The position numbers and the translations under genes were made by a program. DNA of 64,000 nt from sequence record PZ026127.1. One strand, given 5' to 3'. The notes below the pieces were generated by a model. That model did not search any database. It was given only the letters and a program-made list of their open reading frames with translations, and was not told the DNA's origin. Position 1 is the first letter of the stretch. Every line of letters starts with the position of its first letter. Of this stretch, positions 27,282 to 46,859 are shown piece by piece. This stretch comes from a phage.

Positions 27282-27980
27282 ATGAAATTCTCTAAAGAAA
27301 CTCTGAACATTCTGAAAAACTTCTCCAGTATTAACCCAGGTATCATGCTTAAGCCTGGTAACACTATTCTAACTCGTTCAGTAACGGGTGCAAGTTATGG
27401 TGAAGCTACTGTAAGCGATACCTTTGATATCGAAGCCGCAATCTACGACCTGAACGGCTTCTTAAGTATTCTGTCATTGGTATCCGATAGTGCTGAAGTT
27501 TCAGTAAGTGAAGACCAAACCACTTTAATTATTAAAGACCAACGTTCAACTATTAAGTGGCCTATTGCTGACCCAAGTACAATTGCATTCCCAAGCAAAG
27601 CTATTCCATTCCCGGTGGCTGAAGTTATTTTTGACCTTAAAGCCGAAGATTACCAACAGTTGATGCGTGTGTCCTCTGGATTGAGTATTGATACATTTGC
27701 TATCACTGTAGACAACGGTAAAATTGTAATCAATGGCTACAAACAAGTTGATGATAAGGACCTGGCACGTCCATTGTATTCCTTAGTGGTTGCAGACCAT
27801 GATGGTCCTGAATTCAAATTCATTATCAACAAAACCAATATGAAAATGATGCCTGCTGATTACCATGTATTGCTATGGGCTCGTGGTGAAGGTCAGGATG
27901 CTCGTTTCGCAGCCAAGTTTGAAGGTTCACAAGCTTCTTATGTATTGGCTATGGAAGCAGGCTCAAGCCACTCGTTCTAA
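27282..27980 (+). CDS. 45: Sliding clamp gp45
   Basis: 232 aa; strong match to T4 gp45 (LKNFxxINxGIMLK, AAIYDLNGFLxILSLVxD, KWPxADPST, MKMxPxxYxxLLWA). Confidence 0.93.
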   Translation: MKFSKETLNILKNFSSINPGIMLKPGNTILTRSVTGASYGEATVSDTFDIEAAIYDLNGFLSILSLVSDSAEVSVSEDQTTLIIKDQRSTIKWPIADPSTIAFPSKAIPFPVAEVIFDLKAEDYQQLMRVSSGLSIDTFAITVDNGKIVINGYKQVDDKDLARPLYSLVVADHDGPEFKFIINKTNMKMMPADYHVLLWARGEGQDARFAAKFEGSQASYVLAMEAGSSHSF

Positions 27981-28546
27981 TGTACATTTGCTATCATAAT
28001 ACAATAACAAATACCAAAACTAAGGATGTCTACCATTATTTCGGTAGACACCGTGTTACTCCTGAAGAATATTATGGTACTGGTAAATTTGTTAAGAAAT
28101 GCAAACGAGAAAATGCTATAACTCCTGGTGTTTGGGAGTTTAGTATTGAGATTGTCCACAAAACGGATACATTTAAAGAAGCCAAACTTATTGAAGAGGC
28201 CCTTGTTAAAGAAGGTATTGCCAAGTATGGTTCACTTTGTGTTAATAAAGCTCCCGGCGGTCCGGGTGGCGTAGATTTCCACAGTGCTGAATCTAAACGT
28301 AAGATGTCTATCACCCGAACCGGAAAATCAAGAACATTTTCCGAAAGCCATAAGCTTAATTGCTCTAAATGGCAACGCTCTGAAATATGGCAGAATTATG
28401 AAGAGCTCCATAAGATTTGGATAGAACTTGGTATGCCTAAAAAGGGTAGATTTAGTACGCTTTTACAAAATTATGGATATAATTATTCTGCAAACGAATT
28501 GAATAAAATTGTTAAACATTTTAATGAGGAAAATAATAATGAGTAA
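27980..28546 (+). CDS. Putative free-standing GIY-YIG-type homing endonuclease (Seg-like)
   Basis: Inserted between 45 and 44; N-terminal YICYHNTITNTKTKDVYHYFGRH (GIY-YIG-like), PGGPGG, NUMOD3-like repeat SAESKRKMSITRTGKSRTFSESHKLNCSK. Confidence 0.55.
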   Translation: MYICYHNTITNTKTKDVYHYFGRHRVTPEEYYGTGKFVKKCKRENAITPGVWEFSIEIVHKTDTFKEAKLIEEALVKEGIAKYGSLCVNKAPGGPGGVDFHSAESKRKMSITRTGKSRTFSESHKLNCSKWQRSEIWQNYEELHKIWIELGMPKKGRFSTLLQNYGYNYSANELNKIVKHFNEENNNE

Positions 28547-44003: not shown

Positions 44004-45032
44004 ATGTCATATGTCGATAGAGAATTTGCTGTACGTGCCTTGAATTACCAACCTAAATTCAGACAAGTAACTGGTAGTGATTTTAAATTAAACTGTCGTT
44101 GTCGTGTATGTGGCGACTCCCTAAAAGATGAGAACAAAGCTCGTTTTTGGGCCTATCCGGCCAATGACGGCTCCGTAATGCTGCACTGTTTTAACTGTGA
44201 CTATTCAGCAGGAATTAAGAAGTATCTATACGAATATGAGCCTGATTTATATCGAGAATATATTCTTGAGAAACATAAAGAGCAATCGTTCGGGAGACAA
44301 GCTGCACCTAAGGTGGAGATATCAGAAAAGATTAAAGCCAAGATGCCTGTCATCGAAAAGCTTAATTTCTGTGAACGTCTGGATAGAATGCCAAAGGACC
44401 ATCCTATTATCAAATATGTGACGTTACGTTGCATTCCTGAAAACAAATGGAACCGGCTGTGGTTTACTAAAGAATGGCCGGCATTGGTGAACTCTGTCAA
44501 TCCAGGGACCTATTCTAAAGAAATGCCTGAGCCTCGTTTGGTTATTCCAATTTTCAATAAGAATAAACAAATTGAAAGTTTTCAGGGTCGAGCCTTACGT
44601 AAAGATGCTCCACAAAAATATATTACAATAAAAGCTCATGACCAAGCTACAAAAATATATGGAATGGATACAGTTGACGAACGTCAGTTGGTGTGGGTAA
44701 TGGAAGGCCCTATTGACTCTTTGTTTGTTCCGAATGCAATAGCAATTACTGGCGGGTCGTTGGACTTGGCTATGGTTCCATGTAAAGAAACTCGTGCCTG
44801 GGTAATGGACAATGAACCCCGCCATCCTGACACAATTAAGCGTATGCAACGATTAGTTGATGCTGGCGAAAGGGTTCTATTCTGGGACAAGGCTCCATGG
44901 CCTTCTAAAGATATAAATGATATGATTATGAAAGATAAAGCTGATATAAATGATGTACTGGCATATATGAAAGCTAATATAGCCCAAGGTTTAATGGCAA
45001 AAATGAGACTTTCAAAATATTCTAAAATTTAG
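44004..45032 (+). CDS. 61: DNA primase gp61
   Basis: 342 aa; strong match to T4 gp61 (zinc ribbon CRCRVCGDS...CFNCDY; EPRLVIPIxN, FQGRALxKDAPQKYITI, GPIDSLF, DNEPRHPDTIKRM, AQGLMAKMRLSKY). Confidence 0.93.
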   Translation: MSYVDREFAVRALNYQPKFRQVTGSDFKLNCRCRVCGDSLKDENKARFWAYPANDGSVMLHCFNCDYSAGIKKYLYEYEPDLYREYILEKHKEQSFGRQAAPKVEISEKIKAKMPVIEKLNFCERLDRMPKDHPIIKYVTLRCIPENKWNRLWFTKEWPALVNSVNPGTYSKEMPEPRLVIPIFNKNKQIESFQGRALRKDAPQKYITIKAHDQATKIYGMDTVDERQLVWVMEGPIDSLFVPNAIAITGGSLDLAMVPCKETRAWVMDNEPRHPDTIKRMQRLVDAGERVLFWDKAPWPSKDINDMIMKDKADINDVLAYMKANIAQGLMAKMRLSKYSKI

Positions 45033-45229
45033 GCAGGAACTCCGCTAAAGAATCCAATTATGCTTAATACGTGTTCCATTGTAACCGCTGGTAAAATTAT
45101 CCCTTGGCTAGCGGCTACAGGGACTACTAGAAGATTCCAAAGGAATACGTCTAGCGCAAGAAAACCTAACATCATTTTCTTGTCTTTCTTTTCGGCCAAT
45201 TTCCAGATTTGGTAAAAAATACTGCCCAT
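45029..45229 (-). CDS. Small hydrophobic membrane protein on minus strand
   Basis: 66 aa; ATG at 45229 preceded on the minus strand by AGGAGG with about 6-nt spacing; two hydrophobic segments; lies in the 61-56 intergenic region. Confidence 0.5.
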   Translation of the reverse strand: MGSIFYQIWKLAEKKDKKMMLGFLALDVFLWNLLVVPVAASQGIILPAVTMEHVLSIIGFFSGVPA

Positions 45230-45320
45230 GTTATCCTCCTGTTAAATTAATATTTATTCGCTTTAATCTAACAGTTTATAATTATCTAACTTACTAATGA
45301 ATTGAAAAGGAAAAAATATA

Positions 45321-45839
45321 ATGGCATACTTTAACGAATGCGCAAACCTGATTGATGGTGTTGATAAAGCTGAGGAAGCTTATTTTAATGCTCTGATTCA
45401 TGAAGATAAAGACCCTCTGCAAGTTATGCTTGATATGCAGAAATCTTTACAGGTTCGTTTGGCTAATGACCGTGAATATTGTTACCATCCGGACAAATTA
45501 GCGACAGCCGGTGATGTTGTTGCTTGGATGCGTGAACAGAAAGATTGTATTGACGATGAATTCCGTGAACTTCTGACTTCCCTCGGTGAAATGTCTAAAG
45601 GTGAGAAAGATGCATCTGCTGTATGGAAAAAATGGAAAGCCCGTTACCCGGAAGCACAAGCCAAACCTATTTCAGAAATGTCTCCTGAAGACCAGCTTGA
45701 AATTAAATTTGAACTCATTGATATTATGCACTTCGTATTCAATATGGCTATTGGCCTGAATATGTCGGCTGAAGAAATGTTTAAACTTTATTATCTGAAG
45801 AATGCTGAAAACTTTGCAAGGCAGGACCGTGGCTATTAA
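45321..45839 (+). CDS. 56: dCTP pyrophosphatase gp56
   Basis: 172 aa; very strong match to T4 gp56 (MAxFNECA, LQVMLDMQ, CYHPDKL, WMREQKDCIDDEFRELLTSLGEM, KWKARY, YYLKNxENFARQDRGY). Confidence 0.93.
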   Translation: MAYFNECANLIDGVDKAEEAYFNALIHEDKDPLQVMLDMQKSLQVRLANDREYCYHPDKLATAGDVVAWMREQKDCIDDEFRELLTSLGEMSKGEKDASAVWKKWKARYPEAQAKPISEMSPEDQLEIKFELIDIMHFVFNMAIGLNMSAEEMFKLYYLKNAENFARQDRGY

Positions 45840-46497
45840 GGCTAAGTTTTATAGAACTTATTTGATAAAAATTAGGACGCCGAAAGGTGTCTTTTGGTAT
45901 GGTGGTAAACATGAAACCTTTATACTAAATCCAAATAAAGATAGATATCCAGGTTCTGGCAAAATCTTATGGAATATGTATAAAAAGTATGGTCTAAAAT
46001 ATAAAATACGTTGGTTTGTAGGCCACCAAAATTTAGAAGAATCTTTTAATCATGAAAGACTTTTAATAGCCAAAATAAGAGAAAAGCATCCTAACGAATG
46101 CTTGAATATATTACCAGGTGGCGCTGGCAGCGAAGGACATAAATGGACTGAAGAACAGTGTATAGAGCACAAGCTTAGATTAAATAAACCTGAAACTAAG
46201 ATTAAAATGAGGAAGGCTCAAGCTATAGCTCAGAATAGGCCTGAACGTAAAGCTCGTCAATCAGAAATAATGAAAGAGTTTTATGAGAATGGTGGGAATA
46301 AATTAATATCTGAAGCCACTTCTAAAGCTCAACGAACTGCTCCTCATTGGCATGAACCATTGAAAAGCGAAATCTATAATATTTGGCTTTCATTAGGTAA
46401 ACCAACTACAGGTCCTGTAGTCAAAGAACTTAAAGGTAAATATGACGTTACCGCAAGTGCTCTCAAAAATTTAATATACTCTTTTAGAGATATATAA
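45802..46497 (+). CDS. Putative free-standing GIY-YIG-type homing endonuclease (Seg-like)
   Basis: N-terminal YRTYLIKIRTPKGVFWYGGKH, LPGGAGS, NUMOD3-like HKWTEEQCIEHKLRLNK; overlaps 3' end of 56; start uncertain (ATG 45802 or GTG 45829). Confidence 0.5.
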   Translation: MLKTLQGRTVAIKAKFYRTYLIKIRTPKGVFWYGGKHETFILNPNKDRYPGSGKILWNMYKKYGLKYKIRWFVGHQNLEESFNHERLLIAKIREKHPNECLNILPGGAGSEGHKWTEEQCIEHKLRLNKPETKIKMRKAQAIAQNRPERKARQSEIMKEFYENGGNKLISEATSKAQRTAPHWHEPLKSEIYNIWLSLGKPTTGPVVKELKGKYDVTASALKNLIYSFRDI

Positions 46498-46500
46498 ATA
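46493..46500 (+). promoter_or_regulatory. Late promoter (TATAAATA) for soc
   Basis: Exact TATAAATA about 30 nt upstream of soc ATG. Confidence 0.5.
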
Positions 46501-46531
46501 CACCTGTAATTAAACAACAAAGGAGTTAATT

Positions 46532-46765
46532 ATGGGTGGTTTCGTTAATATCAAAACCTTTACACATCCAGCTGGTGAAGGTAAAGAAGTTAAAGGTACT
46601 GAGGTTTCGGTTCCGTTTGAGATTTATTCAAACGAGCACCGTATTGCAGACTCTCATTATCAGACTTTCCCTTCGGCCGTTGCAGCCTATACTACTGTAG
46701 TGACTGATGCAGCCGATTGGCGAACTAAGAACGCAGCAATGTTCACGCCGACCCCAGTAGTTTAA
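46532..46765 (+). CDS. soc: Small outer capsid protein Soc
   Basis: 77 aa; VNIKTF and HYQTFPS motifs as in T4 Soc. Confidence 0.75.
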   Translation: MGGFVNIKTFTHPAGEGKEVKGTEVSVPFEIYSNEHRIADSHYQTFPSAVAAYTTVVTDAADWRTKNAAMFTPTPVV

Positions 46766-46769
46766 TTAT

Positions 46770-46795
46770 AAGGAACCTTCGGGTTCCTTTTTTGG
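46770..46795 (+). terminator. Rho-independent terminator (UUCG tetraloop)
   Basis: GGAACC-TTCG-GGTTCC followed by TTTTTT. Confidence 0.65.
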
Positions 46796-46859
46796 TTTTA
46801 AGGGTTTACTTTCTAAGAAGGTTATGTTAAGATGGTCTTATCTTATAGAGGAGAACACT

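Follow-up and report, generated by a model that had tools for sequence, protein, structure and literature searches.

What gene occupies the interval between gene 56 and soc in the phage sequence record PZ026127.1, and how did it come to lie there? In a stretch of 64,000 nucleotides from this record (hereafter the window), the first-pass annotation, made from the letters alone, had placed an open reading frame (ORF) for a Seg-like homing endonuclease at positions 45802–46497, with its start inside the 3' end of the dCTPase gene 56. The ORF listing of the window recovered exactly these coordinates (plus strand, 231 amino acids, ATG start), and the comparisons described below support the ORF being an ortholog of segF of phage T4, i.e., a free-standing homing endonuclease gene of the Seg family (GIY-YIG). 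We consider it very probable that the locus as a whole represents segF of a Dhakavirus-type T4-like phage, a promoter-less free-standing cassette that encodes a modular enzyme of about 222 amino acids and is spread by intronless homing.

The product of the ORF matches T4 SegF (formerly the product of gene 69; AAD42517) with 69% identity in a tblastn search (E-value 1e-104, residues 5–229) and with 71% identity in a MAFFT alignment, and the similarity spans the full length of the protein, which places it in the SegF orthologous group. It is 100% identical to the corresponding products of Escherichia phage AnYang, a Dhakavirus, and Salmonella phage vB_SalM_ABTNLsp5 (tblastn, E-value 3e-153), whose DNA is 97% identical to positions 45321–46800 by megablast and is annotated in both phages as dCTPase, homing endonuclease and Soc, in that order. 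The element is thus already known, the AnYang protein being annotated as "SegF homing endonuclease" (QAU03732). The gene order 56, segF, soc is common to the window, T4, AnYang and ABTNLsp5 by annotation and synteny comparison, and together with a match to PHROG 314 ("homing endonuclease", E-value 9e-20) and the predicted fold it bears out the proposed Seg-like identity. More distant tblastn matches were to GIY-YIG homing endonuclease genes of Aeromonas phages (31.6% identity, E-value 5e-13) and to segC (31% identity over residues 16–146, E-value 3e-6). The SegF family is small; its members among 5.8 billion proteins fall into 14 clusters at 90% identity, all without a precomputed Pfam domain. 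The ratio of nonsynonymous to synonymous substitution rates (dN/dS) between segF lineages is 0.10–0.30, and the SegF protein is therefore under purifying selection.

T4 SegF is an active free-standing GIY-YIG enzyme whose gene is inserted between soc and gene 56, whose target is gene 56 itself (listed as such in Table 1 of PMC2988022), and which excludes T2 gene 56 in crosses of T4 with T2 (PMC2988022; PMC2330249).

The structure of the window protein was predicted with AlphaFold from an alignment of 13 family members (predicted local distance difference test score, pLDDT, 70.5). The N-terminal domain is modelled as beta-beta-alpha-beta-alpha, the order of a GIY-YIG core, and its best matches are the catalytic domain of I-TevI (PDB 1LN0) and other GIY-YIG nucleases. 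A Foldseek search against viral models likewise returned dozens of Seg-like and GIY-YIG homing endonucleases, with E-values from 1e-10 to 1e-5. The residues Y11, Y24, G26, E76 and N93 (numbered from the GTG at 45829) are invariant in the 13 to 14 family members; E76 falls opposite the catalytic E75 of I-TevI in the alignment, and the "LNI" of SegF corresponds to the "YNI" of I-TevI that contains N90. The roles assigned to the Tyr, the Tyr-x-Gly, the Glu and the Asn are those of their counterparts in I-TevI. For R27 of I-TevI the candidates are K45, which lies at the start of helix 1 and is not invariant, and the invariant R9, neither of them unambiguous. Following the nuclease domain, the model places linker helices at residues 108–118, 121–135, 138–153, 158–163 and 166–170, and then a C-terminal helix-turn-helix domain joined by a flexible linker, a modular layout like that of I-TevI. 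SegF is predicted to have three parts: a GIY-YIG nuclease domain at the N-terminus, a linker made of helices and, at the C-terminus, a putative DNA-binding domain of helix-turn-helix type. A different motif assignment, with GVF as the "GIY" and YPG as the "YIG", came out of a MAFFT alignment with I-TevI and was rejected because AlphaFold puts RTY and WYGG on beta-1 and beta-2.

The sequence-based domain searches lent this identity no support. No nuclease domain was matched in Pfam (E-value cut-offs of 1 and 10, whole protein and halves), in NCBIfam, or in PDB searches with phmmer and with a family profile, where the only matches (a ribosome-inactivating protein, a glucoamylase and PatB) were chance ones with E-values above 0.03; comparison of the 14-member family with I-TevI by hhalign gave a probability of 0.4%. 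The domain search that the first-pass annotation had proposed as a check therefore counts formally against an endonuclease, and we regard it as overridden by the evidence from fold and orthology. T4 SegF, with its published activity, has no Pfam match either, so the Pfam result reflects the insensitivity of the models to the SegF clade. SegF has also been described as a GIY-YIG/HNH "hybrid" (PMC2988022). When the C-terminal 90 residues were searched alone, they retrieved SegF orthologs and four weak matches (E-values 1e-3 to 6e-3) that are annotated as "homing endonuclease" or "hypothetical protein" or are unannotated.

An older identity for the gene must also be considered, namely that the ORF is the legacy "gene 69", a DNA replication protein associated with origin A or made as a 56-69 fusion of about 392 amino acids. 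The name is kept in X01416, K03113, M30001, UniProt P04523 (392 amino acids, "DNA replication protein") and some recent genomes, and T4 oriA is annotated inside gene 56. Against this stand the current T4 annotation and the literature, which reassign gene 69 to SegF (PMC2988022; PMC2330249), as well as the predicted nuclease fold. Gene 56 of the window terminates with a TAA at 45837–45839 and segF is read in another frame, so that no 56-69 fusion is encoded, and we rejected the fusion and replication-protein reading as scarcely credible. Several GenBank and UniProt entries for SegF orthologs are similarly mislabelled, as "DNA replication protein", "hypothetical protein" or "oligopeptide ABC transporter".

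The homing endonuclease gene is a precise insertion. In a junction alignment with segF-less relatives (phage PSD9 and the loci L009 and L010), the relatives run from ...GGTTATTAAG straight into TTATAAATACACC, and identity to them returns to about 100% exactly at TATAAATACACC (46493). The flanking start and stop positions are common to segF-less genomes, and segF has therefore borrowed both its start and its stop from host sequence. The stop lies inside the sequence TATAAATA, which occurs once between 44900 and 47000 and is carried at the same place by segF-less relatives; it is the T4 late-promoter consensus and, here, the putative late promoter of soc. The insert has a GC content of 33.9%, compared with 39.3% for the window. 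Its distribution is patchy, with segF present in only 3 of 41 gene 56 loci from IMG/VR, many of which have a spacer of 45 nt between 56 and soc, and with 62 GenBank phage records containing most of SegF, compared with 432 matched by the 56-segF-soc query region. Such sporadic presence with precise boundaries is the pattern of a mobile homing gene. Many other segF-less phages (L007, L008, L013 and L016–L038) have 174–607 nt of unrelated DNA in the 56-soc gap, and L016 has 1404 nt there together with a weak Seg-like match upstream of 56. The 56-soc slot appears to be a general insertion hotspot.

The insertion does not come alone, for the 3' two-thirds of gene 56 has been replaced together with it. 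Compared with PSD9, L009 and L010, the window is 90–100% identical upstream of gene 56 and through its first ~140 nt. From 45461 to the gene 56 stop, in 60-nt windows, identity is 57–90% to segF-less Dhakavirus loci and 77–97% to segF-containing VR26, which belongs to another genus. Counted as mismatches to PSD9, of the same genus, the change is from 5 in 45300–45460 to 105 in 45461–45845. T4 and T2-like loci, compared in the same manner, have their left boundary in the same place (about nt 120–150 of gene 56) and provide an independent replicate. At the protein level, two allele classes of gp56 are sharply distinct over residues ~48–125. All six segF-containing loci, from four lineages, carry one of these (class A; NDR-EYCYHPDKL...WMREQKDC...GEMS...WKKWKARY), and nearly all segF-less loci carry the other, the exceptions being L041 and L008 with class-A-like sequence, in which segF may have been lost or from which the class A allele may originally have come. 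The stretch most diverged between the classes, in the window about 45611–45700 (140–230 bp upstream of the insertion) and likewise in the T4 equivalent, is a candidate target or immunity region, and it is also simply where gp56 is least constrained. The cuts of free-standing endonucleases fall hundreds of bp away from the endonuclease gene, and the sequence in between is co-converted (PMC2988022; PMC2330249). Judged by sequence comparison, the replaced gene 56 segment plus insertion matches the expected co-conversion footprint, short of proof that SegF caused these events.

Much of the same evidence could be read as ordinary homologous recombination between co-infecting T4-like phages, with segF a passive passenger in a mosaic whose 3' part of gene 56 is foreign. 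Mosaicism pervades T4-like genomes, soc and the flanks here also switch their nearest relative between PSD9-like and AnYang-like, and the left boundary adjoins a highly conserved block (DPLQVMLDMQKSLQVRLA) that would favour crossovers anyway. Set against these points, the same module, which comprises segF and the part of gene 56 from about nt 140 onward, separates segF-containing from segF-less phages in two genera, the class of the gp56 allele follows segF through four lineages, and T4 SegF is published to cause exactly such conversion (PMC2988022; PMC2330249). We therefore hold a passive origin to be very improbable and favour homing driven by SegF.

A second, larger tract records the relation to AnYang, from which the window differs at a single position (45888) between 45456 and 46527. 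Divergence from AnYang is 0.1% within this tract, 3.7% immediately to its left and 16.4% immediately to its right. On the right the window resembles PSD9 instead, with 3 mismatches in 46493–46800 and a Soc protein 100% identical to that of PSD9, the AnYang soc being 16% diverged. With soc PSD9-like and the segF tract, absent from PSD9, AnYang-like, a recombination junction must therefore lie within ~35 nt of the segF stop.

Where SegF begins bears on how it would be expressed. The first-pass annotation had the start embedded in the 3' end of gene 56, and this holds for either candidate, with an overlap of 38 nt from the ATG at 45802 and of 11 nt from the GTG at 45829. It is the choice of the ATG that fares less well. 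In the alignment T4 has no ATG at the position equivalent to 45802, and its own segF ATG (L001:1516) aligns with the GTG of the window. That position is an ATG in VR26, a Cronus-like locus and L006, and a GTG in the window and AnYang. The 11-nt overlap was found in all lineages examined (T4, P479, Mexia, and the P0001, P0011 and P0013 contigs), and the sequence M[A/D]IK.KF marks the called start in 12 of 13 homolog clusters. The upstream ATG is formed by the gene 56 codons AAT-GCT (Asn-Ala), and segF-less PSD9 has AAT-GCC there. The extension from 45802 is thus possible as a start yet not conserved as one, and these alignments make the GTG the likelier of the two, though not conclusively.

T4 segF is promoter-less and overlaps gene 56 by 11 bp, and an intrinsic terminator lies within its coding region, at the 5' end (PMC2988022). 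A consensus scan found no convincing promoter between gene 56 and segF in the window. By eye, 45255–45290, upstream of gene 56, contains a GCTTTA motif followed by a TATAAT-like sequence and resembles a T4 MotA-dependent middle promoter, and this promoter-like sequence would be a likely source of the transcript that carries the promoter-less segF.

The 5' end of segF in the window contains an RNA hairpin (AGGACGCC-GAAA-GGUGUCUU) that is the element described in T4 as the internal terminator (PMC2988022). Its predicted folding energy is -11.2 kcal/mol (z -3.2), compared with -14.6 kcal/mol for the T4 equivalent. Across 11 lineages, standard pairs are formed in all 80 of the 80 pair cells, and 3 of the 8 pairs show compensatory changes on both sides, a covariation score reached by none of 500 shuffles. 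Pair 15-24, which links a Thr codon to a Gly codon through their synonymous third positions, occurs as G-C, G-U (in the window), A-U, U-G and U-A, and the Cronus-type lineage has another stem with a UUCG loop at the same codons. The one base by which the window and AnYang differ in their shared tract is a change from G-C to G-U in this stem. The hairpin was not called by a consensus terminator scan because its T-run is too short. It would act as a terminator or attenuator.

The GTG at the canonical start, in place of the ATG of other lineages, and the G-U in the hairpin stem could also be signs of decay, in which case the ortholog would no longer be active and would be a decaying or domesticated remnant, kept because its ends are intertwined with gene 56 on one side and the soc promoter on the other, or because it has taken on another role. 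Homing endonuclease genes are, as general knowledge has it, expected to degenerate after fixation. Nevertheless, the ORF is full-length and intact, no residue invariant in the family is missing (the putative catalytic residues E76 and N93 are among them), the dN/dS of 0.10–0.30 is low, and the tract near-identical to AnYang within diverged flanks argues for recent transfer. We consider an inactive remnant unlikely, if less so than a passive passenger, and take the window SegF to be a probably active enzyme.

By analogy with T4 SegF, the protein would be made at a low level from the gene 56 transcript, its expression limited by a weak GTG that overlaps the gene 56 stop by 11 nt, by translational coupling or re-initiation, and by the hairpin or terminator, which lies about 45 nt from the segF start. 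When a segF-less relative infects the same cell, SegF would cut the gene 56 of the relative some distance upstream of the insertion point, and double-strand-break repair templated by the segF-containing genome would transfer segF to the recipient together with the neighbouring 3' portion of gene 56, an outcome named "intronless homing" or localized marker exclusion. The gene 56 allele of the phage itself would presumably resist cutting by SegF. In a 2002 study by Belle, Landthaler and Shub (Genes Dev 16:351), T4 SegF is reported to favour the gene 56 of T2 over that of T4, with repair leaving T4 gene 56 and segF predominant in the progeny.

A more speculative joint reading would combine these elements. 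The hairpin would be more than a consequence of the protein sequence, namely a cis-regulatory RNA under selection, serving as attenuator, terminator or processing site, kept in every SegF lineage by compensatory synonymous changes and down-tuned in the window phage by the GTG start and the G-U in the stem, segF would spread one gp56 allele class across genera, and about 45611–45700 would be the candidate determinant of cleavage or immunity. We put this forward tentatively and think it rather doubtful as a whole. If true, it would mean that the segF endonuclease shapes the evolution of gp56, an essential enzyme of nucleotide metabolism. The coordinates of the features are collected in Table 1.

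Table 1. Features at the gene 56-segF-soc locus, in positions of the 64,000-nucleotide window.
Feature	Position	Strand	Basis or remark
Gene 56 (dCTPase/dUTPase), upstream host gene	45321..45839	+	PHROG 173, E-value 3e-40; Pfam dUTPase_2 above cut-off
segF-linked (class A) allele over the 3' two-thirds of gene 56, putatively co-converted	45461..45840	+	Comparison with PSD9 and VR26
Tract near-identical to AnYang, 1072 bp	45456..46527	+	1 difference, at 45888
Possible 9-codon N-terminal extension	45802..45828	+	ATG start annotated in AnYang and MY742
11-nt segF/gene 56 overlap (GTGGCTATTAA)	45829..45839	+	Same overlap in T4
segF coding sequence from the T4-homologous start	45829..46497	+	GTG; 222 amino acids plus stop
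Insertion, body of segF, 652 bp	45841..46492	+	Absent from segF-less PSD9, L009, L010
GIY-YIG catalytic domain (predicted)	45841..46122	+	Residues ~5-98, GTG numbering
Invariant residues Y11; Y24; G26; E76; N93	45859-45861; 45898-45900; 45904-45906; 46054-46056; 46105-46107	+	
Conserved RNA hairpin in the segF 5' end	45874..45893	+	Folding, covariation
Helical linker, basic and repetitive	46150..46338	+	Residues ~108-170; "NUMOD3-like" by eye, without Pfam match
C-terminal three-helix (helix-turn-helix/homeodomain-like) putative DNA-binding domain	46360..46494	+	
TATAAATA upstream of soc	46493..46500	+	Contains the segF stop TAA (46495-46497)

Compared with known systems, the window gene is closest to the segF of AnYang and ABTNLsp5, from which its protein does not differ; the AnYang flanks do differ. 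With T4 segF it shares the slot between 56 and soc, the 11-nt overlap, the internal hairpin, the stop inside TATAAATA and the linked gp56 allele class, and it departs from T4 in having a GTG for the ATG, an in-frame ATG 27 nt upstream and a G-U for a G-C in the hairpin. The hosts differ as well, T4 being a Tequatrovirus and the window phage a Dhakavirus, and the window SegF is known here from its sequence. SegA–E, SegG and the Seg-like ORF at 27980 of the window are likewise free-standing and wedged between essential genes, with an N-terminal GIY-YIG-type domain (Y..GSGK, N..PGG) and a C-terminal LG.P..G helix-turn-helix-like tail, but they have other insertion sites and presumably other targets, and at 20–30% identity they are paralogs only. 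I-TevI, the td intron endonuclease of T4, has no sequence or profile similarity to SegF that we could detect; SegF is not intron-encoded and has no evident zinc finger, and the cuts made by free-standing enzymes lie far from where their genes are inserted (PMC2988022).

As a discovery the gene matters little, SegF being a textbook free-standing homing endonuclease whose exact protein is already in GenBank. The locus is instead a clean natural illustration of intronless homing outside the genus of T4, comprising a 652-bp insertion with borrowed start and stop, a hitch-hiking 380-bp segment of an essential target gene and a covarying RNA element. What we add is small: a probable start at the GTG, the host origin of the start and stop codons, a natural footprint of co-conversion in a Dhakavirus and the covariation of the hairpin. 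For annotation, the locus has value in that public orthologs are mislabelled and gene callers disagree on the start codon.

The first-pass annotation had linked the ORF to another Seg-like ORF through PGG and NUMOD3-like features. This second ORF (27980–28546, plus strand, 188 amino acids) lies between the sliding-clamp gene 45 (27282–27980) and the clamp-loader gene 44 and touches both. It is colinear with SegF along its length (22% identity, pairwise E-value 4e-4), and its ortholog in phage MX01 is a Foldseek match to the SegF model (E-value 2.7e-9). Both proteins have N..PGG after a conserved Glu-containing helix (NILPGG in SegF and NKAPGG in the 27980 ORF), as well as a C-terminal W..LG.P..G motif, so the PGG part of the link stands. 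The NUMOD3 part does not, since SegF has no match to NUMOD3 (PF07460) at E-values up to 10 in the whole protein or its C-terminal 131 residues, and the 27980 ORF has a sub-threshold one only (E-value 0.068; 13.5 bits against a cut-off of 20.4). The 27980 ORF was found in only 34 phage records (MX01 at 98%, LQ5 at 97%, Bp7 at 78% and VR20 at 65%), most of which call it a "hypothetical protein". MX01 has the 27980 gene and lacks segF; the window therefore combines two patchily distributed endonuclease genes.

Around segF, the window has the primase gene 61 upstream of gene 56 and soc downstream at 46532–46765 (Pfam Soc, E-value 3e-17). Between primase gene 61 and gene 56 there is a small hydrophobic ORF of 66 amino acids on the minus strand (45029–45229; PHROG 2024, unknown function, E-value 6e-28), which is conserved in the P0001 and P0011 contigs and in the place of which T4 has dam. 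Klebsiella phage Mexia (L050, 1–218) has an annotated HNH endonuclease gene directly upstream of gene 56 and segF directly downstream, and its gene 56 is therefore flanked by two homing-endonuclease-type genes. Finally, the P0001 lineage, which is the closest non-identical SegF lineage (90% identity), has an extra small ORF of 87 amino acids between segF and soc (L046, 3673–3936; also L047 and L048), and P479 has one of 75 amino acids in the same place (L049, 1399–1626); the window goes from segF to soc without it.

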